Shown here: piece after piece, positions 8,352 to 57,592 of the stretch
Position numbering within the stretch: position 1 is the stretch's first letter
Layout: each line of letters opens with the position of its first letter
Source of the DNA: an uncultured delta proteobacterium
Lineage (GTDB): Bacteria; Desulfobacterota; Deferrimicrobia; Deferrimicrobiales; Deferrimicrobiaceae
Assembly: GCA_963760885.1 (NCBI GenBank)
Contig: CAVXEY010000007.1
Location: 136,883 to 200,882 of the forward strand
Direction: 5' to 3'
Length of the DNA stretch: 64,000 nucleotides
Notes under the pieces: model-generated
Told to the model about the DNA's origin: nothing
Database searches by the model: none
The model's input: the letters and a program-made list of their open reading frames with translations, nothing else
Made by a program: the position numbers and the translations under genes

Positions 8352-8921
8352 CTACAACAGCTTCCTCACTTCCTTGTCGAACGCTTCCTTGTCCATGTAC
8401 CCGACGTGGACGTTCTTGATCTCCCCGTCCTTTCCAACGAAGAAGGTGGTCGGGAGGGCGGAGACCCCGCCGTACGCGCGGGCGGTGGCCAGGTCCCCGA
8501 AAAGAATCTTGTACCCGATCCGGTTGCTCATCAGGAACCCCGGCATGTTCTCCCGCGTGTCGGTGTCGAGCGAGATGCCGATCAACTCGAAACCGTTCTC
8601 CTTGTGCCGGTTGTACACCTCGACGAATCCGGGGATCTCCTCCCGGCAGGGGGGGCACCAGGTCGCGAAGAAGTTGATGGCTGCCGGCTTCCCCGCCAGT
8701 TGGGCGGAGGAGTAGATGTTTCCGTTCGTGTCCTTGAGGGAGAACGGGGGAGCGGTCCTCGACCCGGAGAACCCCGCCGTCGTTCCCGTCCCGTCCTTCG
8801 TGACCTCCCGCTCCTGTTGCCAATTCCGGTATAGCAGGAGGACTCCCGCCAGTACCACGACCAGCGCCAGGATCAGCGGAACCGCGCCGATTCCATTTCG
8901 CGACAACGTACCCCTCTTCAT
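8352..8921 (-). CDS. TlpA/ResA-like thiol-disulfide oxidoreductase (thioredoxin fold, membrane anchored)
   Basis: N-terminal TM helix. WCPPC active site (FFATWCPPCREEIP). Confidence 0.8.
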   Translation of the reverse strand: MKRGTLSRNGIGAVPLILALVVVLAGVLLLYRNWQQEREVTKDGTGTTAGFSGSRTAPPFSLKDTNGNIYSSAQLAGKPAAINFFATWCPPCREEIPGFVEVYNRHKENGFELIGISLDTDTRENMPGFLMSNRIGYKILFGDLATARAYGGVSALPTTFFVGKDGEIKNVHVGYMDKEAFDKEVRKLL

Positions 8922-11212: not shown

Positions 11213-12676
11213 GTGCACCCGCGCGACGGGATGCGCCTCATCCTTTACGACAGCGCATCCAGGGGGAACGTACCCTTCGCGCCCGCGGACCCGGAGCGGG
11301 TCCGCATCTATACCTGCGGTCCCACCGTCTACCGGTACGCCCACATCGGGAACCTCCGAACCTACCTCCTCACCGACCTCCTCGTTCGTACCTTGCGCTT
11401 CCTCGGGTACGGAACGTTCGCCGTCCAGAACATCACCGACATGGGGCACATGCACCAGGAGCGATTGGAGGCGGGCGAAGACAAGGTGATCGCCGCCGCC
11501 CGCGCGGCCGGGAAGTCGGGTCGGGAGATCGCGCGATTCTTCACGGAGGCGTTCTTCCGAGACTGCGGCCGCATGGCGTTCCTGCCGGCGGACGCTTACC
11601 CGAGGGCCTCGGAGCACGTTCCGGAGATGATCGCGCTCGTGCGCGCCCTCGAGGAGCGTGGGGCCGTCTACGGGGGGGGCGGGTACCTCTACTTCGATGT
11701 GATGAATGCGCCCGGATACGGGATCTTCTCCGGTGCACGCCTCGGGGAGGGGGAGGCCGCGGTGCGCACGGACGAGACGATCCATCGGCACAAGAAGCGC
11801 CCGGAAGATTTCACGCTCTGGATGCCGGCCGAGCCCGACAGGGAGTTCCAGTGGGAGAGCCGCTGGGGCGCGGGTTGGCCGGGATGGCACATCGAGTGCG
11901 CGGCGATGGCGATCCGGCATCTCGGGCCGGAATTCGATGTCCACGTCGGAGGCGTCGACCTCCGTTTCCCGCATCACGAGAACTCCCGGGCGGTGGCGAT
12001 GACAGCGACCGGGAAAAAGTTCGCGGCTCTCTGGCTGCACGCCGCGCACCTGCTGGTCGACGGGAAGAAGATGTCCAAGTCCACCGGAAACGAGCACACG
12101 CTGGATGATCTCGCCGCTCGTCCCCGGGCCCTCGGAGATGGGTACTCCCCGGCCGACTTCCGGTACTATTGCCTCACACTTCACTACTCCTCGCCGATGA
12201 ACTTCACCTGGGAGGGGCAGGAGGCGGCCGCCCGGGCGCGCTCCCGCCTGCGGGCCGCTTTCCGACGGGCGGCTCTGCACGCGACGTCGGGAGAAGACGC
12301 CGCGGCGGCGTTGCGAGCGGAGTTTCGCGGCGCGATCTCGGACGACCTGAACATGCCGCGCGCTCTCGCCGTGGTCCACAAGGCGGTCCGGTCGGGGATC
12401 GGAGGGGACGCGGCCCGGGGGCTCGCCACGGAGTGGGACGCGGTCCTCGGCGTGGGCCTGCTCTCCGAAGCGGACGGCAGCGAGGGGAACGGCGTCCGCG
12501 AAGGGGAGGCGGAAACGATCCCGGTCGAGGTCGCGTCGATGGCCCGGGAACGGGAGACCCGGCGTCGGACGCGCGATTACGCGGCGGCGGACGCGCTTCG
12601 GGAAAAGATCCGGTCCGCGGGGTACGAAGTGGTGGACGCGGCGGAGGGAACCGTGGTTCTTCGGAATATCCAGTAG
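11213..12676 (+). CDS. cysS: cysteinyl-tRNA synthetase
   Basis: HIGN (HIGH) motif, KMSKS motif, CysRS-type zinc Cys (YTCGPTVY). The start may be GTG at 11213 or ATG at 11231. Confidence 0.9.
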   Translation: MHPRDGMRLILYDSASRGNVPFAPADPERVRIYTCGPTVYRYAHIGNLRTYLLTDLLVRTLRFLGYGTFAVQNITDMGHMHQERLEAGEDKVIAAARAAGKSGREIARFFTEAFFRDCGRMAFLPADAYPRASEHVPEMIALVRALEERGAVYGGGGYLYFDVMNAPGYGIFSGARLGEGEAAVRTDETIHRHKKRPEDFTLWMPAEPDREFQWESRWGAGWPGWHIECAAMAIRHLGPEFDVHVGGVDLRFPHHENSRAVAMTATGKKFAALWLHAAHLLVDGKKMSKSTGNEHTLDDLAARPRALGDGYSPADFRYYCLTLHYSSPMNFTWEGQEAAARARSRLRAAFRRAALHATSGEDAAAALRAEFRGAISDDLNMPRALAVVHKAVRSGIGGDAARGLATEWDAVLGVGLLSEADGSEGNGVREGEAETIPVEVASMARERETRRRTRDYAAADALREKIRSAGYEVVDAAEGTVVLRNIQ

Positions 12677-19919: not shown

Positions 19920-20883
19920 GTGGATAAGAAGAAACTACAGGTTGCACTTTACTGGGGTGCGGGATGCGGGGGCTGTGACGTGGCGGTCCTCGATACCGAC
20001 GAATTCATTCTCGAGCTTGCCGAAGTGGCCGACATCCGGTTGTGGCCCATCGCGGTGGACGCCAAGTATAAGGACGTCGAGGCGATGGCTCGACGGCGAG
20101 CTCGATCTGACGATTTTCAACGGGGCCGTCCGGAACAGCGAAAACGAGCACATCGCGAAGCTGTTGCGACGCAAGAGCAAGCTGGTGGTCGCTTTCGGTT
20201 CCTGCGCCCACCTGGGCGGGATCCCGGCGTTGGCGAACCAGACAACGAAAGAGGAGATCTTCGAGCGGGCGTACGGGAAGAATCCGTCGATCGAAGAGGG
20301 GAACACCACCGTCCCCCAGGCACATACCCGGGTGAACGGTGGCGAGCTCACGATCCCCATGTTCTACAGGCGGGTCTACAAGTTGGACGACGTGGTGGAC
20401 GTGGACCTGTATGTCCCCGGCTGCCCACCGGCCCCCGAACAGGTCAAGGCGGTGCTCAAGGCGGTGGCGAGCAACCTGCTTCCGCCGAAGGGCAGCGTGG
20501 TGGGCGCTTCGGAACGCGCGGTCTGCGACGATTGCCTGAGGAAGAAGGAAGAAAAGAAGGTCAAACGATTCTACCGGCCGTGGCAGATCATCCAGGATCC
20601 CGAACGGTGCCTGATGGAACAGGGCATCCTTTGCGCCGGATCGGCGACCCGCTCCGGGTGCGGTGTGCGCTGCCCGAACAGCAACATGCCGTGCCGCGGC
20701 TGTTACGGCCCGCTGCCCAATGTCATGGACCAGGGAGCGAAGCTTCTGAGCGCGGTGGCTTCGATCATCGACAGCAAGGATCCCGAGGAGATCGACCGGA
20801 TCCTTGACGGGATTCAGGATTTCACCGGATACGCCTACCGTTTCGGGATGGCGGGATCCCTATTGCAGAGGAGAACCGGCTGA
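19920..20883 (+). CDS. mvhG: [NiFe]-hydrogenase small subunit (MvhG-like), apparently frameshifted near 20085-20095
   Basis: N-terminus MDKKKLQVALYWGAGCGGCDVAV...KDVEAM is in frame 0. The rest (DGELDLTIFNGAVRNSENE...GSCAHLGGIP...CPPAPEQ...CRGCYGP) is in frame +1. One extra nt at ~20089. Confidence 0.7.
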
Positions 20884-23531: not shown

Positions 23532-24294
23532 TCAGAACGAAAGCTGCGCCCCGAGGTACGGGCCGCTCAGTTTGAAGGAGACCAGCGTGTCGTCCCGGTC
23601 GATCTTCAGGTCGACGTACCGGTATCCCCCCTGGATCCGGACGAACGGCAGGGGAGCGAACGAGGCGTACGCGTCCGCGTCGTACAGGTGGTTCCCCGAG
23701 TAGGCGATCCCGGCCGCGCGGGCGTCGACACGCACCATGTCCTTCAGGAATCCTACCCCCGCCGCCGCGCCGATCATCGGGATCGGCGCCTTGAAATCCT
23801 TCGTCTCCGTCTGCAGGGTGTCCCGCAATTCCACTTTCCCGTCAACGTACTTCACCTTCAGGATCAGGCCGATGTTGAAGCCGGCGATGCCGAAGTCGGG
23901 GCGGAGGAAGTCGTACTGCACTTCCCCGTCGAGCATCTTCATGTCGAGCATGGAGATCACGTCGTCCGATGCGGAATAGGTCGTCCCGTTGAATACGACG
24001 GCCTGGGTCAGTCGCTTGTCCCCGTCGTACTTGATACTGGGTGTACCCCACTCGAAGCGTCGTGTTTCCAAACCGCAGGTACGCCTCCCCGAACGGGATA
24101 TTCTCGTCCTTCACACCCAGGGTGTCCTTGAAATCGAACCGGGTGTCACCGGTCATGTTCGTCTGCGCGCTCCCGGTCAGTTTGGGGAACCAGTACGCCC
24201 CGCGGGCTCCCACCTCGAATCCCGAAGCCGCAAACGCGCTCCCCGCCATGAGAAAGACACCCGCCACCGTCGCAACCTTGAGAATCCGTCGCAT
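23532..24294 (-). CDS. outer-membrane beta-barrel protein (OmpW/OmpA-like), apparently frameshifted near 24040-24071
   Basis: Signal peptide MRRILKVATVAGVFLMAGSAFA, alternating beta-strand pattern and a C-terminal ...AQLSF. The N- and C-terminal parts lie in different frames. RBS AAGGAG. Confidence 0.6.
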
Positions 24295-24377
24295 AATGAA
24301 CTCCTTTCCCCATTCGTGCGAATCCCCAATTGGTGTATTATCGGCAGGAAAGGCAGGAAACCTTACGATCAAAGGAC

Positions 24378-24473
24378 GGAAGCGGATGGGGCGCTGGTGG
24401 CCCCCCCGGACTTCAAATCCGGTCGGGAGGCGGAAACGTCTCCGGTGGGTTCGATTCCCTCACGCTTCCGCCA
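24378..24473 (+). tRNA. selC: tRNA-Sec-like (anticodon UCA, long variable arm, ~96 nt)
   Basis: GGAAGCGG...CCGGACTTCAAATCCGG...(long extra arm)...GGGTTCGATTCCC...CGCTTCCGCCA. The anticodon loop CTTCAAA gives a TCA anticodon. The acceptor stem is 7 bp plus a G.A pair, which is not ideal for a bacterial Sec tRNA. Confidence 0.7.
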
Positions 24474-25030
24474 TTCTTTTGCGAGTACCTGCACCCGCAA
24501 TACCGCTGGCGGTAGAGCCCCATCTCCCTGCTGGCGCGGACGCTTTTCAGGTACCCGTCCCCCTTTTTCAGGTCCGCCGCGACGAATCGGACCCCGGCAT
24601 GCTCCTCCTCCTCGCGTCCCACGCGGTTCACCATCGCGGCGTCTTTCTTCGGGCTGACGGTCAGCACCGTGCCGAAGGCGGGCATCCCGAGTTCCGCCGC
24701 TTTTTTCGCGGTCTCCCGAAGGCGGAGCCGGACGCACGCCTCGCACCGGCGTCCACGCTCGGGTTCGCCTTCCATCCCCCGGGCGGCGGCTTCCCACGCC
24801 TCCTCGCCGCCGGCGCCGACCACCAGGGGGAAGGGGTCTTTTTCCCGCAGGTCGAGGGTCGCATGGAGCCGTTTCCGGAATTCTTCCCGGGAATCGATGT
24901 TTGGGTTATAAAAGAAGCCGGTGACGTCGAACCGGTCCCGCAGCGCGCGAACGCCGTACGAGGCGTCGGGGGCGCAGCAGATGTGGACCAGCACTTCCGT
25001 GCCCGACGGGATGTCGCAAAGGAGATGCAC
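24413..25030 (-). CDS. queH: epoxyqueuosine reductase QueH (DUF208 family)
   Basis: HICCAPDASY, FFYNPNI and YCGCRYS motifs characteristic of QueH. The 3' 60 nt overlap the tRNA-Sec-like gene. Confidence 0.65.
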   Translation of the reverse strand: MHLLCDIPSGTEVLVHICCAPDASYGVRALRDRFDVTGFFYNPNIDSREEFRKRLHATLDLREKDPFPLVVGAGGEEAWEAAARGMEGEPERGRRCEACVRLRLRETAKKAAELGMPAFGTVLTVSPKKDAAMVNRVGREEEEHAGVRFVAADLKKGDGYLKSVRASREMGLYRQRYCGCRYSQKNGGSVRESNPPETFPPPDRI

Positions 25031-37268: not shown

Positions 37269-38033
37269 CTACACCCCGGGAATCTTCTCCGGGGAGCGGC
37301 CGAGGAAGCCGAGGATGCCGTACAGGAGCGTCAGCGGGTGGGGAGGGCACCCGGGGATGAACAGATCGACCGGCAAGACGGCACCGACGCCGTTTTCGAC
37401 CGCATAGGAGTCCCGGAAGATCCCGCCGCTTGCGGCGCATGCGCCGATCGCGATGACGATCCGGGGCTCCGCGATCGCCTCGTACGTCTTGACAAGGGCC
37501 ACCCGCATGTTCTTCGACACGGGGCCGGTTACCAGCAGCCCGTCCGCGTGCCGGGGGGATGCGACGAAGTCGATCCCGAACCGCTGCAGATCGAATACAG
37601 GGTTTCCGAGCGCCTGCGCTTCGAGGTCGCAGCCGTTGCAGCCGCCGGCGGACACTTCCCGCAGGTGAAGCGACCGGCCGAGGAGGGACCGGATGTCCTG
37701 GGAGGCCGTCAGGGGGGGAAATTCCTGCCCTCCAAGCACAAGGTGTTCCCGCTTGCCGCACGGGAGACGGGGATCCTGCGAGAACCGGATTCCCTCGCCG
37801 CCGCATGCTTCCTCGCACAGGCCGCAGAAGACGCACCGCCCGAGGTCGATCGTCCTCTTCTCCGGGTCGATCGCGTCCGTGGCGCACGCCTTCGCACACG
37901 TCGCGGCGACACCGAGGATCCGGAACGCCTCCCCGATCTCCGGCATTCCGCGGAACGGAGACGGGAGATCACCCGCCGGCAGGGCTACGGTTACGTTTCC
38001 CGCGCTCGTTCGCTTCATTATCGATTCCAGCAT
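37269..38033 (-). CDS. group-4-hydrogenase-type small subunit (NuoB/HycG-like) with an N-terminal ferredoxin-like (HycF/NuoI-like) extension
   Basis: CVFCGLCEEAC cluster motif, then GGCNGCDLE...IAIGACAASGG...PGCPPHP (proximal [4Fe-4S] ligands). GAGG RBS before the ATG at 38033. Confidence 0.75.
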   Translation of the reverse strand: MLESIMKRTSAGNVTVALPAGDLPSPFRGMPEIGEAFRILGVAATCAKACATDAIDPEKRTIDLGRCVFCGLCEEACGGEGIRFSQDPRLPCGKREHLVLGGQEFPPLTASQDIRSLLGRSLHLREVSAGGCNGCDLEAQALGNPVFDLQRFGIDFVASPRHADGLLVTGPVSKNMRVALVKTYEAIAEPRIVIAIGACAASGGIFRDSYAVENGVGAVLPVDLFIPGCPPHPLTLLYGILGFLGRSPEKIPGV

Positions 38034-38044
38034 GGAATACCTCG

Positions 38045-39580
38045 TTAAAGGTCCGTGCCCGCGTACGACAGGTTGAAGCTCTTGTTGCACACGGGGAAGT
38101 CGGAGATGACGTTTTTCTGGACGGCGAACGACAGGGCCGGCCAGTTACGGAACGACGGGTCGACGACCTTGTAGCGCGTGATCCGCCTCTCGCCGTCGAA
38201 GACGGCCGCATGGACGATCTCACCGCGCCACCCCTCTTCGATGGACACGGCCAGACAGCGGCCGGCGGCGGGGGCGACCCCTTCCGCCGCGATCGAGCCC
38301 GGGGGCATCTCCCCGGCGAGGATGCCGGAAAGCCACTCGAACGAGGCCCGCATCTCCATGACCCGGACTCTTGCGCGGGCCATCACGTCCCCGGCGTCGA
38401 GCAGTACCTTCGCCGGGGGCGAGTCCACATAGGCCGGGGAAGGGAAGTCCCGCCGCGCGTCGACGTCCCGGCCGGAGGCGCGGGCCGCCATGCCCACGAA
38501 TTGGAGCGTCTTCGCCGTGTGCGGGAAAAGACGCCCCGTTCCTTCCATCCGGGCTCCGACCGACGGGGCATCCAGCAGCATCGTCCCGACCCCTTCCACT
38601 TCGGATCGCAGGCGCCCCAGCTCCGCCATCAGGTCTTCCGGAGCGATCCCCGGGACGCGGGGGCCGATCCCTCCGATCCGGTTCAGCCCGCGCCCGTAAC
38701 GGTTTCCGGTGATCTTCAGAAGCAGGTTCAGCGCCGCGCCGCGGAGGCGCCCGAAGTGGGCCGCCCCGAACAGGTATCCGATGTCGGTCGAGAGCCCCCC
38801 GAGGTCCCCGCAATGGTTCGAGATCCGCTCGATCTCGAGCGAGACGGCGCGCCATCGTTCCGCGGAGCGGTTCGCGGGGTTCCCCGTGATCGCTTCGAGG
38901 AGGCGGGCGCACGCGGTCGCGTGCCCCACTGCGGTGTCCCCCGAGATCGATTCGGAAAGGAGGATCTTCCCCATCCCCGGATCGCCGGGCAGGAGGGTTT
39001 CGATCCCCTTGTGCTGGTATCCCAGACGGATCTCGAGGTTCTGGATCGTCTCTCCGGCGCAGGAAAAACGGAAGTGCCCCGGTTCGATGATCCCGGCGTG
39101 GACGGGCCCCACCGCCACCTCGTGGATTCCCTCGCCCCGCACAAGAAGGAACCGGTAGGCACGGCGCGGATCGGGCGCGGGCGCATCCGCGGAACGCAAT
39201 GGGAAGAACTTCTCCGGCCACGCTTCATGGAAGCGCAGGGGGTTGAGCTCGGGATGGCCTTCCGGAACCAGGCCGAAGAGGTCGTAGACTTCCCGCTCGA
39301 ACCAATGGGTTCCGGGGCAGACGTCGGTGAACGTCCGGAAGGAGCGCGGGGAGGTCTCCACGCAGGCGTGGACGAACCGGCCCGGTGCGGCCCCCCCGGC
39401 GACCGCGTGAAGAAGAAATCGTCCGGAAGATGGCTCCTCCGCGAACAACGCGAGGAGGCGGTCGCCGCCGGTGGATGTTTCACGGAGGAACGCGCGGAAC
39501 GCTTCCTCCTTCAGCGGGGAGGTGTTGCCGAGGTCGAACGTGCGGACACAGCGCATCGACTTGTCCCTTTCGCCGTTCAT
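38045..39580 (-). CDS. group-4-hydrogenase-like large subunit (NuoC+NuoD / HycE-like) lacking the NiFe cysteine ligands (Ehr-like)
   Basis: NuoC-like N-domain (EVYDLFGL...). NuoD-like GPVHAGIIEPGHFRF. The L1 position reads SISGDTAVGH instead of RxCGxCxxxH. The C-terminus reads DFPVCNKSF instead of DPCxxCxxR. Confidence 0.8.
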   Translation of the reverse strand: MNGERDKSMRCVRTFDLGNTSPLKEEAFRAFLRETSTGGDRLLALFAEEPSSGRFLLHAVAGGAAPGRFVHACVETSPRSFRTFTDVCPGTHWFEREVYDLFGLVPEGHPELNPLRFHEAWPEKFFPLRSADAPAPDPRRAYRFLLVRGEGIHEVAVGPVHAGIIEPGHFRFSCAGETIQNLEIRLGYQHKGIETLLPGDPGMGKILLSESISGDTAVGHATACARLLEAITGNPANRSAERWRAVSLEIERISNHCGDLGGLSTDIGYLFGAAHFGRLRGAALNLLLKITGNRYGRGLNRIGGIGPRVPGIAPEDLMAELGRLRSEVEGVGTMLLDAPSVGARMEGTGRLFPHTAKTLQFVGMAARASGRDVDARRDFPSPAYVDSPPAKVLLDAGDVMARARVRVMEMRASFEWLSGILAGEMPPGSIAAEGVAPAAGRCLAVSIEEGWRGEIVHAAVFDGERRITRYKVVDPSFRNWPALSFAVQKNVISDFPVCNKSFNLSYAGTDL

Positions 39581-40992
39581 GAGAACGCGACCACGGTGGA
39601 GAGCCGCTCCAGGGTCTTGTACAAGCCCGCGGGGACGTGGAGCCCCAGCCACAGGGAGGCAAGAAGCAGGACGCACGCCGGGAGGAGGCACCAAAGTTCC
39701 GGGCCGGCAAGTTTTCGCGGCACGCCTTCCCCGAAGACCATGCCGCTGCCGTACATGAGGAAGGATCCGAAAAGAATCGCGAGCAGGACGAGGTATGCGA
39801 GGGAAACGGCCAGGTGCCCGCCCGCGATCCCCCCGACGAGGATGCCGAACTCGCTCCAGAAGGCGCCGAACGGCGGGGATCCCGTGATCGCGAGGACCCC
39901 GCCGAACAGCAGGACGCCGCGCAGCGGAGACTCCCTCAGGATCCCGTGGATATGCCGGATCTTCTGCGTGCCGAACCGCAGGATGAGGTCTCCGGCGACG
40001 AGGAAGAGCAGGACCTTGGCCACGGAGTGGTTCAGCACGTGCAGCAGTGCTGCCGGTCGGGCGGCCCCGCCGAACCCGAGCCCGAGGACGACGATCCCCA
40101 TGTTCTCGATCGAGGAAAAGGCGAGCAACCGCTTGATGTCCCGCTGGACCGCCACGAGGAGCGCGGGAACCGCGATCGATAGAATCCCGAAGAGGATCAG
40201 CAGGGGCGAAGCGTACGCACCGGGGACCGCCGGGGCGACCCGCAGGATCGAGAGCAGGGCGCAGTTCAGCAAGACCCCCGACAGCATCGCGGAAGACGGC
40301 GCGGGAGCCTGGCTGTGCGCGTCCGGAAGCCACGTGTGCATCGGCGCGAGCCCCATCTTGGTACCGTACCCTACGAGAAAGAAGAGGAACGCCAGCCGCA
40401 GGAAGCGTGGGTCGAGCCGCTTCGCGGCAAGGGGAAGCGCCGTGTACGTCAGCGGGATGTCCCCGGCCGCCCGCGAGAGGAAGATGATCCCGAGGAAGGC
40501 CAGGGCGATCCCGACCGAGCAGATGAGCAGGTACTTCCAGGCGGCCTCCATTCCTCGGCGGTCCCCGTGCAGGTAGATGAGCGGGGCCGAGAAGAGCGTC
40601 GTGGCCTCTACGGCGACCCATTGCAGGGCGAGGTGGTGGGAGCAGACGACCACGACCATCGAGAGGACGAACAGGTTGGTCCACACGTGATACATCTGCA
40701 CCTTGGCCGGGCCGATGTGCCCTCCCTCGAGCTCCCGCCGGAAATACCCGTACGCGTACACGGAGCACAGGAAGTGAATGCCGGCGACGATCAGGAGGAA
40801 GTAGGATCCGAGCTCGTCGAGCCGCAGAAGTTCGCCCCACGCGGCGATGCGGGGGGACAGCCCCTGGATCACCGCGCCGGAAAGGAGCGCGGTCGCGCCG
40901 ACGACGGTTCCGAGGGCGGCCTGCCAAGGGGCGCGCGACAGAAGTGCCAGGATCACCCCGGTCAACGGGGCGAGGAGCAGCAGCGGGATCAT
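39577..40992 (-). CDS. antiporter-like membrane subunit (NuoN/NuoM/HyfF-like)
   Basis: 472 aa, about 14 TM helices. Conserved TKMGLAPMHTWLPDAH motif of the Mrp/NuoLMN family. Confidence 0.8.
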   Translation of the reverse strand: MIPLLLLAPLTGVILALLSRAPWQAALGTVVGATALLSGAVIQGLSPRIAAWGELLRLDELGSYFLLIVAGIHFLCSVYAYGYFRRELEGGHIGPAKVQMYHVWTNLFVLSMVVVVCSHHLALQWVAVEATTLFSAPLIYLHGDRRGMEAAWKYLLICSVGIALAFLGIIFLSRAAGDIPLTYTALPLAAKRLDPRFLRLAFLFFLVGYGTKMGLAPMHTWLPDAHSQAPAPSSAMLSGVLLNCALLSILRVAPAVPGAYASPLLILFGILSIAVPALLVAVQRDIKRLLAFSSIENMGIVVLGLGFGGAARPAALLHVLNHSVAKVLLFLVAGDLILRFGTQKIRHIHGILRESPLRGVLLFGGVLAITGSPPFGAFWSEFGILVGGIAGGHLAVSLAYLVLLAILFGSFLMYGSGMVFGEGVPRKLAGPELWCLLPACVLLLASLWLGLHVPAGLYKTLERLSTVVAFS

Positions 40993-40994
40993 CC

Positions 40995-41621
40995 CTAATC
41001 CTTCAACGTGTGGATTTTCCGGACGTCCATGTGCGTGAACGTCCGCTGGATCTTGAGCATCAGGATCCCCATCAGGAAGACTGCGACGAACAGGTCGAGG
41101 AAGATCCCCAGCTCGATCGGCAGCGTGAACTCGCTGCCCGACGCCGCGCCGAACAGGAAAATCCCGTTTTCGAGGACGACGAACCCGATCACCTGGGTGA
41201 CGGCCTTGACGCGCGTGGTCATCATGAGGAGGCCGGAAAAAAGGAGCGTGAGTCCCGCGGCGGCGCCGAGCTGGTCCTGGCCGGAAAGCCCGAACCGGTC
41301 GCAGGCGACGAAGGCGGAAAGGGCGAGCACCCCCGTAAGAAGGACGGAGGTCTTCGTCGATACGAGCGATTCCGTCTCCCGCTTGATCTCCAGGCGGGAA
41401 ACGGCGTGGGTGAGGATCGCCGGAATCGCCACACTCTTCACGGCGACGGTGGCGAGGCCCAGCGCCACGGCGCGCCACAAGGGCCGGGGCGACGCGAGGA
41501 AGGGGAGGAGGGCGAGCAGAACTCCTTGCGCGGCCAGTGACCGGATTGCGGTGGGGATGCGCTCCGTCATGGCCATGTGGAGGCCGAGGAGGAGAAGGAG
41601 AACGGTGACGGTGCCCATCAT
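40995..41621 (-). CDS. HyfE-like small membrane subunit of hydrogenase-4-type complexes
   Basis: 208 aa with 6 TM helices. Position and size match HyfE/NuoK-like subunits. Confidence 0.7.
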   Translation of the reverse strand: MMGTVTVLLLLLGLHMAMTERIPTAIRSLAAQGVLLALLPFLASPRPLWRAVALGLATVAVKSVAIPAILTHAVSRLEIKRETESLVSTKTSVLLTGVLALSAFVACDRFGLSGQDQLGAAAGLTLLFSGLLMMTTRVKAVTQVIGFVVLENGIFLFGAASGSEFTLPIELGIFLDLFVAVFLMGILMLKIQRTFTHMDVRKIHTLKD

Positions 41622-41631
41622 CTTTCCCCCC

Positions 41632-42534
41632 TCACCCCGCGAACCGGATGGCGAGCGCGATGGATGCCAGCACGGTGGCGACCAGCAGGTACGAGGCGGT
41701 CCGCGACAGCCGCATCCGCGCCAACCCCGCCTCCGTCGCGCCGATCAGCACCCCCGAAAGGACGACCTTCACGACGGCACCCGGGATCGCGAGAAACGTC
41801 GGCAGGGAGAACATCTCGGGGAAGAGGGTCCCGGAAACAAGGGCGGAAAAGAGGACCAGGCGAACGCCGGACGCCAGCTGGATCATCGCGAGATCGACCC
41901 CCGCGTGGTCCAGCACCATCGCTTCGTGGATCATCGTCAGTTCGAGGTGCGTGGCCGGGTCGTCCACCGGGATCCGCGCGTTTTCCGCCAGGAGCAGCAG
42001 GAACATCGTCCCGGCAAGAAGGATCACCTCCGGCCGCCAGAGCACCCTTCCCGGGGGAACGCCCGCGATCATCCCGCTCACCGTGTCCGCGCCCCCGAGG
42101 TACGCCAGGCCGCAGAACGAAAGGATCAGCGCCGGCTCCGCCATCGCCGAGATGGCCACTTCCCGGCTGGACCCCAGCCCTCCGAACGCGCTTCCCGTGT
42201 CCATCCCGGCAAGGGTCTGGAAGAACCGGGGCAGCGCCATCAGGTAGAGAAAGAGGACGAAGTGCATCGGGAGCGGAACGTCGCGGGACCATAAGGGGGT
42301 CGCCGCCGCGAGGACCAGCGAAGCGCCGAGGACGACCGGGGCGGACAGGTCGAACACCCACGATGCCGTCGTGCTGCGGACGATCCCCCTGCGGAACAGT
42401 TTCCAAAGGTCCAGGTATGGCTGGAACACCGGCGCTCCTTGCCGGCAGGAGAGGAACGCTTTGGTCTTCCGGACGACTCCGGCAAGGAGGGGTCCGAGAA
42501 GGACGAAGAGCCCGATGTGCGCGGCGAAGTACAT
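41632..42534 (-). CDS. NuoH/HycD/HyfC-like membrane subunit
   Basis: 300 aa with 8 TM helices. NuoH-family loop motifs (LVSGTLFPE...). Confidence 0.8.
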   Translation of the reverse strand: MYFAAHIGLFVLLGPLLAGVVRKTKAFLSCRQGAPVFQPYLDLWKLFRRGIVRSTTASWVFDLSAPVVLGASLVLAAATPLWSRDVPLPMHFVLFLYLMALPRFFQTLAGMDTGSAFGGLGSSREVAISAMAEPALILSFCGLAYLGGADTVSGMIAGVPPGRVLWRPEVILLAGTMFLLLLAENARIPVDDPATHLELTMIHEAMVLDHAGVDLAMIQLASGVRLVLFSALVSGTLFPEMFSLPTFLAIPGAVVKVVLSGVLIGATEAGLARMRLSRTASYLLVATVLASIALAIRFAG

Positions 42535-42549
42535 GAATGCGTCTCTCCC

Positions 42550-44541
42550 TTAATGGAAAAAAACCAGCAGAAGCACGATGGTACCCAGGATGTAGCCGAG
42601 ATACAGGTGGATGTACCCCGGGTGCAGGCGGCGCGCCTGGAACGCGGCCTGCACGAACAGGCGGTATACAGGGAGGTACAGGCCGTTTTCGAGGAGATCG
42701 TGGAAATGCGTCTCGTGCTCCACCTCGAGCAGGAACCTTCCGGAAAGCCGTTCCGTGCGGATGGTGTGCGGACGGAGGATCCCCTGAAAGACGTGCAGGA
42801 TCGGGTCGGCGAACGACGACGCGGTGTACTGCATCCGTGGGGTGGCGTTCGGGAAGCCACACCCCCACGTTTCCCCCGCGCGTTGGCCGTTCCGTCGAAG
42901 CAGAAACGTCCGGAGGAGCCACAGCACCCCGATCGCGGCCGCCAGCGCGATCGCCACGGTGAACGGTTTCCCGCCTGCCGCCGGGATCGCGACGCCCGCC
43001 GGCGCACCCGCCGACGAGAGGAAGGAGGTGATCTCCATGAGACGGTCCAGGACGAGGGAGGGGAAGACCCCGAGCCCGAGGCAGAAAAGGGCCAGCGTCC
43101 CCATCGGGAATTCCATCGCGACGGACGGGTCGCGGGCCGCGGACGCCTGGGGGCTGCGCGCGTTTCCGAGGAAGACCGTCCCCACGACCTTGACGAAGCA
43201 GACGACCGCCAACCCCCCGATCAGTGCGAGCCCCGCCATCGCGGCGAGGTAGACTCCTCCGATCCCCGCGCCCCGGGCGGCGGCCCACAGCCCCCGGTAG
43301 ATGGCGAACTCGCTCGCGAACCCGTTGAACGGGGGTACGGCCGAGATGGCGAGGGATCCCGCGAGGAACGCGATCCCTGTGACCGGCATCCCTCGCATCA
43401 ACCCGCCGAGTTTCTCGATGTTGCGGGTGTGCGCGCCCTGGAGGACCGCGCCGGCTCCCAGGAAAAGGAGCGCCTTGAACGTGGCGTGGTTCAGAACATG
43501 GAACAACCCCCCGACGAGGAGAAGTCGCGCGGCGTCGGGCCGGCCCGTGGCCTGGCACAGGGAGGCCGCCCCGACCCCGATCAGGATGATTCCGATGTTC
43601 TCGACGCTGTGGAAGGCGAGCAGCCGCTTCAGGTCGTGCTGGACGATCGCGTAGAGGACGCCGAAGACGCCGGAGAGCAGGCCCAGGGCGAGCAAGGTCG
43701 CCCCGAAGGAGGCGGGAGGAGCGGGGAGCAGGTAGAAGAGGAAGCGGACGATCCCGTAGATCCCCATCTTGATCATGACGCCGGACATGACGGCCGAAAC
43801 CGGCGATGGCGCCTCCGGATGGGCGTACGGCAACCAGATGTGGAACGGGAAGATCCCCGCCTTCGTGCCGAACCCCAGCAGGGCGAACCCGAACGTGGCG
43901 GCGAGGATCGCCGGGTCGGAGATGGGGACCGGTGCGAACCCGTTGAAGGAGAACGAGCCCGTCGTCTGCTCGAGGAAGAGGAACGCCAGGAGGATCCCGC
44001 CCGTCCCGATGTGCGTCGCGATCAGGTAGATAAGCCCCGCCTGCCGCGCCTCCCGCTTCTCGTGGTTGAGGACGACGAGGAAGTAGGAAGCGAGGCTCAT
44101 TCCCTCCCAGCCGAGGAGGAACGACAGCATGTCTCCGGCGGATACGACGAAGGCCATGGAGAGAAGGAGCAGATTCAGGAGCAGCGGCGCGGCCTGCCCC
44201 CTCCGGCGCGCGTCGAACTCCTTCATGTACCCGGCGGCGTACACGGAGACGAGGAACCCGATGAAGAAGATCAGCGCGAGGAAGAACGCGGAGAGCCCGT
44301 CGAGGAACAGCTCGGAGGCCACCCACGGCACGGGGGCCGGAAGCGGGATGCGCATCGGGGCTTCCCTCATCGAGGCGGCCAGCGTGACGGCCAGGCCGAG
44401 GAAGGAGGCGACGGCGCCCCCCCCGAATCCAACGACGCGCGAGCGTCGAGGGTCCCGGATCAGGAGCGCAAGGACGCCGGGGACGAGGAAGGCGGATGCG
44501 ACAACAAACGACAACGCCGAAGGCATCGTGGACGGCTCCAT
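42550..44541 (-). CDS. antiporter-like membrane subunit (NuoL/HyfB/HycC-like)
   Basis: 663 aa. TKAGIFPFHIWLPYAHPEAPSPVSAVMSG motif and long multi-TM layout of NuoL/HyfB. Confidence 0.8.
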   Translation of the reverse strand: MEPSTMPSALSFVVASAFLVPGVLALLIRDPRRSRVVGFGGGAVASFLGLAVTLAASMREAPMRIPLPAPVPWVASELFLDGLSAFFLALIFFIGFLVSVYAAGYMKEFDARRRGQAAPLLLNLLLLSMAFVVSAGDMLSFLLGWEGMSLASYFLVVLNHEKREARQAGLIYLIATHIGTGGILLAFLFLEQTTGSFSFNGFAPVPISDPAILAATFGFALLGFGTKAGIFPFHIWLPYAHPEAPSPVSAVMSGVMIKMGIYGIVRFLFYLLPAPPASFGATLLALGLLSGVFGVLYAIVQHDLKRLLAFHSVENIGIILIGVGAASLCQATGRPDAARLLLVGGLFHVLNHATFKALLFLGAGAVLQGAHTRNIEKLGGLMRGMPVTGIAFLAGSLAISAVPPFNGFASEFAIYRGLWAAARGAGIGGVYLAAMAGLALIGGLAVVCFVKVVGTVFLGNARSPQASAARDPSVAMEFPMGTLALFCLGLGVFPSLVLDRLMEITSFLSSAGAPAGVAIPAAGGKPFTVAIALAAAIGVLWLLRTFLLRRNGQRAGETWGCGFPNATPRMQYTASSFADPILHVFQGILRPHTIRTERLSGRFLLEVEHETHFHDLLENGLYLPVYRLFVQAAFQARRLHPGYIHLYLGYILGTIVLLLVFFH

Positions 44542-56467: not shown

Positions 56468-57592
56468 TCACTTCGTCCGCGCGAACGCCTCCATGAAGGC
56501 GGCGAGCGTCTCCACCCATTCGTACGGAGCGGCGTTGTAGATCGACACCCGGATTCCCCCGACGGAGCGGTGCCCCTTGAGGCCGATCATCCCCTGTTTC
56601 TTCGCCTCGGAGATGAACCGCTCTTCGAGTTCGGGGGCCGGGAGCCGGAAGACGACGTTCATCACCGAGCGGCTCTCCCGTTCCACCGGCGAACGGAAAA
56701 ATTCCGGGTTTCCGTCGATGACGCCGTAGAGGCGCGCCGCCTTCTTCCGGTTGATCGCCTCCATCCCGGCGAGCCCTCCCTGTCCCTTGAGCCAGGAGAG
56801 GACGTTGCGGACCATGTAGACGCCGAAGGTGGGCGGCGTGTTGTAGAGCGACTTGTTCTCGGCGTGGGTCCGGAACTGGAAGATCTTCGGGATATCCTTC
56901 CGCCCCCGGTCGAGCAGTTCCTTCGACACCACCGCGACCACCACGCCCGACGGGCCGATGTTCTTCTGGGCGCCGGCGTAGACCATGCCGAACTTCGTCA
57001 CGTCGAACGGGCGCCAGAGGAAGTCGCTCGACATGTCCGCGATCAGCGGCACGTCTCCCGTGACCGGGAAGGCGCGGGACGGGTCGACGTTGTACTCGAC
57101 GCCGTGGATCGTCTCGTTCGAGGTGATGTGCAGGTAGGCGGATCCGGGTTCGACCTTCACCCCGGAGGGAGCGGGCACGCGGGTGTAGCTCTTACCCTTC
57201 CCCTCGCCGACGCCCAGGCTCTGCACCGAGACGGAGGCTCCGAACATCGCCGAGACGCTCTTCGCCTCGCCGAGCGCCTTTTCGCCCCAGGCGCCGGTGA
57301 CGAGGTACTGCGTGGTCGCACCCTTGTCCAGGAAATTCATCGGAATCTGGGCGAACAGGGCCGTGGCCCCGCCCTGAAGCAGGAGAACTTCGTGGCTCGC
57401 CGGGACCCCGAGCAACTCCCGCACGAGGGCGATCGCCTCGTCGTGTACGGCTTCGTACTCCTTCCCTCGGTGGCTGTGCTCCATGACCGACATGCCGCTT
57501 CCGGCGAAGTCGAGAAACTCGTCGCGGGCCCGCTCAAGCGCGGGAAGGGGAAGGGCGGCGGGTCCGGCGTTGAAATTGACCGTTCGTTTCAT
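56468..57592 (-). CDS. serC: phosphoserine aminotransferase
   Basis: [15 protein letters not shown] start. Class-V aminotransferase. PLP Lys region [13 protein letters not shown]. Confidence 0.9.

Follow-up and report, generated by a model that had tools for sequence, protein, structure and literature searches.

The stretch from 24378 to 24473 on the forward strand of the window (the whole 64-kb piece of DNA analysed here) is, judging from its sequence and conservation, a genuine tRNA-Sec gene (selC), of a form typical of its lineage. That lineage is the candidate phylum MBNT15, or Ca. Deferrimicrobiota (PMC9386147), a group of uncultured iron reducers. Two irregular oppositions in the acceptor/T branch of the tRNA, a G·A and a U·U, appear to be the usual, inherited state of this lineage, and neither an indel nor a sign of decay. 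ARAGORN places a tRNA-SeC with anticodon tca at exactly 24378-24473(+), one of five tRNAs that it finds across the window, and the Rfam family RF01852 matches 24378-24469 with 74.1 bits (gathering score 47, E = 2.5e-13). The initial annotation had described a 96-nt tRNA-Sec with anticodon UCA and a long variable arm; the Rfam match and the ARAGORN run that it had proposed both bear this out.

The 96 nt include an encoded CCA, and the gene model is supported by ARAGORN, Rfam, covariation and conservation alike. The acceptor stem is formed by tRNA nt 1-8 and 85-92. It is followed by a D arm (nt 11-27) with 6 bp, a bulged nt 16 and a UGGU loop, by an anticodon arm (nt 29-45) whose 7-nt loop CUUCAAA contains the anticodon TCA at 24413..24415 (UCA, reading UGA), by a variable arm (nt 47-67) with 7 bp and a GAAA loop, and by a T arm (nt 68-84) in which G68-U69-G70-G71-G72 face C80-C81-C82-U83-C84. 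The discriminator G93, equivalent to G73, lies at 24470 and precedes the CCA. The identity elements for serine are thus in place, namely the long 7-bp variable arm and G73, and the discriminator is G in the 110 related tRNA-Sec sequences discussed below as well (110/110). In the acceptor, nt 1-7 and 86-92 make seven Watson-Crick pairs, after which G8 (24385), the 5' partner of the eighth position, stands opposite A85 (24462), which is not a Watson-Crick combination; reading the sequence in this way agrees with the earlier description of an acceptor of 7 bp plus a G·A. There is a second irregularity in the T stem, where U69 (24446), on the 5' side of the second pair, faces U83 (24460). The acceptor/T branch therefore has 13 nt on each strand and 11 standard pairs.

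Could this irregular branch result from an assembly error (a 1-nt indel or a substitution) or belong to a decaying pseudogene? Single-base indels do set the window apart from a near-identical ENA contig, ERZ25039539:contig_28125 (347 kb), a close relative rather than the same sequence, which we retrieved through a protein look-up. About 2-3% of the flanking positions differ over 7.5 kb, and there are several indels besides, among them those at 20090 and 24036; the extra A at 24036 breaks the neighbouring outer-membrane-protein gene, which is intact in the other contig (253 aa). However, none of these differences falls inside 24378-24473. The same 96 nt are found in independent long-read and short-read assemblies: in ERZ25039539:contig_28125, in the GTDB genome L045 and in dozens of short-read (JGI) metagenome contigs. 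Moreover, relatives differ from the window tRNA by substitution alone, position 85 included and never in length, they show compensatory changes, they conserve about 97% of the tRNA beside unalignable flanks, and the Rfam score equals that of canonically paired relatives. The indel, one of two alternatives offered in the initial annotation, is therefore rejected, and we regard error or decay in general as extremely improbable.

The extent of this conservation emerged from two scans. The first covered GTDB, with one genome per species, using the sequence of the anticodon and T arms as a query. It returned 120 loci, mostly from Desulfobacterota, three of which have a tRNA of the window type: L045, identical to the window, L042 ('Candidatus Deferrimicrobium sp.'), with a G at position 85, and L115. 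The second was a metagenome scan anchored on the D and anticodon arms, which yielded 120 further contigs from many different samples, 107 of them with the full-length tRNA. Over 99 contigs, mean pairwise identity is 0.965 in the part of the tRNA outside the search anchor and 0.39 in the 96 nt upstream, so that the flanks are effectively unalignable across relatives. Only 13 positions of the tRNA vary. In 24 of 24 cases the variable-arm pair G55:C60 becomes A55:U60 jointly, U replaces C65 and C66 in some contigs with G·U pairs remaining, positions 46, 47, 57 and 58 are junction or loop bases, and positions 2, 10 and 62 change in one contig each. Such a pattern bears what we read as the signature of a functional RNA under purifying selection.

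The two irregular oppositions take part in this variation on one side only, G8, A9, U83 and C84 being invariant in the 99 contigs. At position 85, A is carried by 80 contigs, G by 9 and C by 10, the last giving a Watson-Crick G8:C85; at position 69, 86 contigs have U, 6 have A, which restores an A:U pair, and 7 have G, which restores a G·U pair. The mismatched alleles dominate (A or G at 85 in 89 of the 99 contigs, U at 69 in 86), hence selection for pairing is not apparent at either 8:85 or 69:83. The same allele pattern would also be expected of two unpaired nucleotides.

We then aligned 110 distinct tRNA-Sec sequences, 20 with the D arm of the window tRNA (19 of the window type) and 90 others, mostly from Desulfobacterota. 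The 8/5 cloverleaf has standard pairs in 96% of the cells of this alignment, it scores 0.226 for covariation where shuffles score 0.095, and the pairing collapses once partners are slid by one column. All six pairs of the D stem are recovered, five with changes on both sides, and nt 16 is bulged. At 8:85, we found CG in 42 sequences, GC in 4, UA in 2 and AU in 1, a diversity which argues for genuine pairing at this point of the acceptor. The remaining 61 of the 110 have a non-standard combination there, mostly G·G, so an unpaired eighth position is ordinary in that part of the tree. G8·G85 occurs in 37 of the 90 distinct sequences outside the lineage, together with an intact 5-bp T stem, and its carriers include the cultured Desulfobulbus rhabdoformis DSM 8777 and Desulfopila sp. 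IMCC35006; one further locus, L104, combines a G·A with a fully paired T stem. At 69:83, UA is found in 86 of the 110 sequences, besides CG, GC, AU and GU, while U·U is confined to the window's lineage. Columns 8:85 and 69:83 covary across the 110 relatives. Both G·A and U·U together are specific to the tRNA of MBNT15 type. Canonical and irregular members score alike in Rfam, at 73-77 bits. The initial annotation had also considered a 'non-canonical UGA-decoding tRNA'. This term is overstated: the Rfam score matches that of canonically paired relatives, G73, the long variable arm and the 13-nt strands of an 8/5 branch are retained, and 61 of the 110 related sequences share a non-standard eighth pair. 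We consider it reasonably probable that the window tRNA is the bacterial 8/5 tRNA-Sec in the variant form of its lineage.

Which fold does the irregular branch adopt? We lean, with some reserve, towards the 8/5 register with two non-standard layers, 8 and 10. Family homology and covariation, the full 13-nt strands, the pair-restoring alleles C85, A69 and G69 and the G·A of L104 beside a fully paired T stem all speak for it. Alternatively, the same functional tRNA-Sec could be slipped into a 9/3-like form in which A85 is bulged, G8 pairs with C84 (24461), A9 pairs with U83 and only three G:C pairs are left of the T stem; this gives 12 pairs and one bulge, G68 and U69 becoming part of the variable-arm junction, and would imply a natural tRNA-Sec with an acceptor branch like that of allo-tRNAs. 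RNAfold makes this slipped form the minimum-free-energy fold of the window allele, at -46.3 against -46.0 kcal/mol for 8/5, and the ensemble also prefers it, with P(8:84) = 0.59 and P(68:84) = 0.08; this difference of 0.3 kcal/mol, however, ignores tertiary contacts and mismatch geometry. The four nucleotides that the slipped fold requires, G8, A9, U83 and C84, are the invariant ones, and the positions of the stem region that vary freely, 85 and 69, are exactly those it leaves unpaired. A canonical sister, L187, shares the D arm and has C8:G85, G68·U84 and U69:A83. Relative to it, the lineage shows C8>G, U84>C and A83>U, the very changes that create G8:C84 and A9:U83. Natural 12-bp forms of tRNA-Sec are known, too (PMC5389517, PMC5330540). 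On the other hand, 8:84 and 9:83 are invariant and show no covariation; of the 110 sequences across the family, no more than 26 can pair at 9:83 and 61 at 8:84. Both strands keep 13 nt, unlike those of the 12-bp types described, and a single linker nucleotide (U10) would be left before the D stem. The natural C85 and A69 alleles fold back to the 8/5 register, so that a single SelA/SelB pair would need to work with either form.

Tested as a 13-bp (8 + 5) branch, the window tRNA presents 13 nt per strand, the 8/5 covariation of its family, and G·A and U·U at layers 8 and 10. Tested as the 12-bp branch of an allo-tRNA, its slipped fold offers 9 + 3 pairs and the bulged A85, with no covariation and with 13 nt on the 3' strand. 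The alignment of the lineage holds no informative covariation at 8, 9, 83 and 84, and the family-wide alignment favours 8/5 for the family at large but cannot speak for the window's lineage. Overall, the slipped fold appears to us a possible but distinctly less likely reading. The argument extends beyond this lineage, since G8 could also pair with U84 in the G·G class, and 8:84 is standard in 40 of the 44 extra-lineage sequences that lack a standard 8:85. The slip in Deferrimicrobiota and a slip in the G8·G85 class might then belong together as an unrecognised but common fold class of tRNA-Sec, with 13-nt strands and a 12-bp helix. Under this tentative and rather doubtful proposal, the G8·G85 tRNAs of Desulfobulbales and Desulfobacterales would pair G8 with U84 and bulge G85 (8/4 plus a bulge), and a 12-bp helix would be what SelA, SelB and EF-Tu meet.

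A more radical alternative is that the gene only resembles selC and relies on EF-Tu to place a standard amino acid at UGA, either as an opal suppressor of the serine allo-tRNA type or as a tRNA-Cys of the SelC* type. A UCA anticodon on an irregular acceptor/T branch, the lack of any Sec machinery within the window, and the position of cysS, which lies 12 kb upstream in the window and immediately precedes the tRNA in many relatives, would be compatible with such a look-alike. However, SelC* has U73 (PMC5389517) where the window tRNA has G, and downstream we find queH (as in 76 of 96 related loci) instead of a selB*/cysS* pair; the SelC* identity is rejected on both counts. The homology with Desulfobacterota tRNA-Sec holds position by position, and the 3' strand has 13 nt, not 12, between the T loop and the discriminator. 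In addition, TGA ends 21 of the 34 confident genes of the window, queH included, and is the commonest stop codon there. UGA is thus not reassigned, and a constitutive suppressor would be costly. Taken together, we deem a look-alike very unlikely.

Comparison with known systems brings out what is ordinary and what is particular in this tRNA. With the E. coli selC type (8/5, RF01852) it shares the UCA anticodon, G73, the encoded CCA, the long variable arm, the 6-bp D stem with its 4-nt loop, the acceptor ends GGAAG…CUUCCG and 13 nt per strand; it differs in the non-standard layers 8 (G·A) and 10 (U·U), which leave 11 pairs instead of 13, and in the bulged D-stem nucleotide, which is common to the related tRNA-Sec sampled. 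The G8·G85 tRNA-Sec of Desulfobacterota belong to the same sequence family and likewise have a purine-purine eighth acceptor position, but their T stem is fully paired (G·U, U:A and three G:C), whereas the window tRNA has G:C and then U·U, with A at 85. Tolerated deviations from 8/5 have precedents in the 12-bp tRNA-Sec, either 8/4 with a bulge at 51a in Actinobacteria and Chloroflexi or 7/5 in Cloacimonetes and Gammaproteobacteria (PMC5389517, PMC5330540). Those are natural and apparently functional too, and are often bulged, and 12 pairs and a bulge are what the slipped form of the window tRNA would have as well. However, they are one nucleotide shorter on one strand, while the window tRNA retains full 13-nt strands and any bulge would lie on the 3' acceptor strand, at A85. 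Allo-tRNAs (8/4 or 9/3, PMC5389517) share the long variable arm, a D arm like that of tRNA-Sec and, in the slipped fold, a possible 9/3 branch; they nevertheless stand apart as a group, their anticodons being varied and their 12-bp branch a true one, whereas the window tRNA aligns with Desulfobacterota tRNA-Sec and has UCA throughout its lineage. The SelC* tRNA-Cys of Desulfobacterales and Syntrophobacterales (PMC5389517) come from a related phylum and have a tRNA-Sec-like shape, some of them with UCA; they differ in U73, followed by selB* (and cysS*), where the window tRNA has G73, followed by queH. Conserved non-standard oppositions in the acceptor helix of a functional tRNA-Sec are found in eukaryotes as well (U6:U67, G5a·U67b, A5a·G67b), and for one of these a part in shaping the backbone for the Sec elongation factor has been suggested (PMC7609411), although in another domain of life, in a 9/4 fold and at other helix positions.

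In bacterial selenocysteine insertion, SerRS serylates the tRNA, SelA turns the serine into selenocysteine and SelB delivers the product to a UGA marked by a SECIS element. Helix length and the pairs at layers 8-10 are the features by which SelA, SelB and EF-Tu tell tRNA-Sec apart from ordinary tRNAs, and engineers have mutated the positions of these layers to reroute selenocysteine through EF-Tu. By analogy with this pathway, SerRS would charge the window tRNA with serine by way of its long variable arm and G73, SelA would convert that serine to selenocysteine, and SelB would bring the tRNA to UGA codons with a SECIS element in genes outside the window. The bacterial 8/5 layout would be kept, layers 8 and 10 being non-Watson-Crick oppositions that are inherited and tolerated. 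In the account given in PMC11231383, which cites Rudinger et al. 1996, layers 8-10 of E. coli tRNA-Sec (C7:G66, G49:U65, C50:G64) form an antideterminant box that blocks EF-Tu. The irregular layers 8 and 10 would be compatible with this exclusion and may contribute to it, helix length being kept for SelA and SelB; it is plausible, by this comparison, that they are tolerated or even useful for keeping EF-Tu off.

The conserved selC gene predicts that the organism uses selenocysteine. In the 64-kb window, we found neither selA, selB or selD nor any selenoprotein gene, and the 11 kb past its right end, as represented in the near-identical contig, hold none either. Motif scans for SelA, SelD and a SelB-type GTPase over the window and 241 related loci gave no match, Pfam annotation of 30 window proteins revealed no sel gene, and an exact-protein look-up at the left end of the window found no match. 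A tblastn search for Sec/Cys pairs among orthologues at all loci produced off-frame, low-complexity artefacts only. HdrA, FlpD/MvhD and the [NiFe] large subunit (DPCFSCATH) are encoded in the window in their Cys forms. The initial annotation had seen no in-frame UGA in the hdrA/mvh genes; we likewise found no TGA with a coding signal on both sides, there or elsewhere in the window, the candidates that passed our filter (3519 and ~56470) being gene junctions. Inspected as possible Sec codons, three TGA proved to be ordinary boundaries: 3519, between an acyl-CoA ligase and an unknown protein, 51353, between a lipoprotein and a histidine kinase, and ~56468-56470, between SerC and a cytochrome; a more stringent scan brought up no others. 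The selenoproteins predicted by the presence of selC in MBNT15 genomes would be unreported ones, most likely formate dehydrogenases. Two of the latter are reported in the MBNT15 genome paper (PMC9386147); selenium is mentioned neither there nor in its supplements, and a literature search gave nothing relevant.

As a lineage-typical variant of a known gene, the window tRNA is of modest weight on its own, and a pseudogene flag by annotation pipelines would be unwarranted. It raises a question of moderate interest, for the window type and the G·G class alike: does the branch keep 13 layers, mismatches included, or does it slip into a 12-bp helix that carries a bulge? With a candidate phylum that has G·A and U·U at two of the three layers and a large share of relatives that have G·G at layer 8, such irregular tRNA-Sec may be viewed as experiments made by nature on the tolerance of the Sec machinery for departures from regular pairing. 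Should the slipped fold prove real, the known natural scaffolds (8/5, 9/4, 8/4 and 7/5) would be joined by a new one.

The surroundings of the gene are as the initial annotation had them, with the tRNA between an outer-membrane-protein gene and queH. The former lies upstream in divergent orientation and is split by a frameshift in the window; beyond it come a tRNA-Val and the hdrA/flpD(mvhD)/mvhG/mvhA hydrogenase cluster. A scan for sigma-70 promoters and terminators around the tRNA gave nothing convincing adjoining the gene. Downstream, the queH frame occupies 24413-25030 on the minus strand (205 aa) and is convergent with the tRNA, as it is in 76 of 96 related loci. Its conserved part, residues 1-185 (24476..25030), encodes the epoxyqueuosine reductase QueH: PF02677 matches residues 13-185 over profile positions 1-174 of 175 (E = 4.3e-56), and the end of the conserved ...YCGCRYS motif lies 9 nt beyond the 3' end of the tRNA. 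Residues 186-205 lie outside the domain.

These last 20 codons and the stop (24413..24475, minus strand; …NGGSVRESNPPETFPPPDRI and stop) run antisense to tRNA nt 96-36, which substantiates the overlap noticed in the initial annotation. Read from the antisense strand of the tRNA, the tail is GGSVRESNPPETFPPPDRI, up to a TGA (24415-24413) that is the reverse complement of the anticodon. In most relatives, QueH stops 2-4 residues after CGCRYS, outside the tRNA; the tail is present in 15 of the 76 loci, window included, where the spacer measures 6-18 nt and contains no stop codon. The T-stem U·U, the slipped fold of equal energy and the nature of this tail, a non-conserved read-through onto the anti-anticodon, had not figured in the initial annotation. 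With queH packed so tightly and no earlier stop, the frame runs antisense through the tRNA to the TGA opposite the anticodon. Since the Pfam domain does not extend into the tail and relatives can do without it, we take the overlap to be a by-product of packing and not a regulatory device; as far as sequence can tell, it is an accident of close gene packing with no mechanism behind it. Owing to this overlap, the stop and the tail of queH are frozen by selection on the tRNA.

Of 90 distinct sequences of tRNA-Sec, mostly from Desulfobacterota, that were sampled beyond the lineage carrying the window-type tRNA-Sec (MBNT15/Ca. Deferrimicrobiota), 37 (about 40%) have G8 facing G85 as the eighth acceptor layer. 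These tRNAs, found on genome contigs at the related loci L004, L022, L040, L052, L055, L073, L108 and about 30 more, have an otherwise intact 5-bp T stem, and their cultured carriers include Desulfobulbus rhabdoformis DSM 8777 and Desulfopila sp. IMCC35006. G8 could pair instead with U84, leaving G85 bulged. We found no description of this G8·G85 class in the tRNA-Sec literature that we examined. The D arm (24388-24404 in the window) is one nucleotide longer than the Rfam consensus, both here and in all 110 aligned relatives. Its stem has six pairs, five of them covarying, closed by a UGGU loop; the bulged nucleotide is nt 16 in most aligned sequences and nt 15 in a few. A D-stem bulge is already on record for the tRNA-Sec of Clostridiales (PMC5330540).

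The convergent minus-strand gene queH has as its stop codon, at 24413-24415, the reverse complement of the anticodon of tRNA-Sec; one set of three base pairs thus encodes both a UGA stop and the tRNA by which UGA is decoded. Of 76 related loci, 15 show this sharing.

A conserved element some 140 nucleotides long, absent from the window, lies directly on the 3' side of tRNA-Sec in 29 of the roughly 107 related loci (for example L208:3914-4075; also L123, L133, L162, L191 and L239, with two tandem units in L162). At least the last 21 nucleotides of the tRNA are repeated exactly at the end of the element, in a second copy whose position-85 allele matches that of the local tRNA, and the element begins with a partial, inverted copy of the same tRNA end sequence. 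The element thus has tRNA-derived terminal inverted repeats together with an att-like direct repeat. It may be a MITE-like insertion or what is left of an integrated element; it has no Rfam match, and its fold is unexceptional (z = -0.78). Where the element is present, the queH tail is read from the second tRNA copy and ends in …GGSVRESPR*.

Upstream, cysS lies about 0.3-2 kb from tRNA-Sec in many relatives (for example L143:970-2403). In the window, where cysS occupies 11213-12676 and tRNA-Sec starts at 24378, and in the related loci L001 and L175, the two are separated by a hydrogenase cluster of about 10.6 kb (in the order hdrA, Fe-S protein, hdrA, flpD, mvhG, mvhA, maturation protease), an outer-membrane-protein gene and a tRNA-Val. 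The presence of this hydrogenase island beside tRNA genes seems to be polymorphic, by insertion or deletion. Single extra bases set the window apart from the near-identical contig ERZ25039539:contig_28125: an A at 24036 and a T at 20090, both outside homopolymer runs. The former breaks the outer-membrane-protein gene, intact in the other contig (253 aa), into ORFs 23842-24372 and 23532-24071, and the latter shifts the start of mvhG. The extra bases may be assembly errors or may mark real pseudogenes.

Elsewhere in the window, the minus strand carries at 37269-44541 a gene cluster similar to that of an energy-converting (group 4) [NiFe] hydrogenase or a complex-I-like module, with a NuoB-like small subunit bearing an Fe-S domain and NuoH-like and NuoL-like membrane subunits; a simple gene call gave no clean single ORF over its 38090-40995 portion. 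One related metagenome contig, L146, has a c-di-GMP-I-GGC riboswitch at 8463-8538 (RF03167; 62.7 bits, gathering score 59), some 5.5 kb downstream of its tRNA-Sec.
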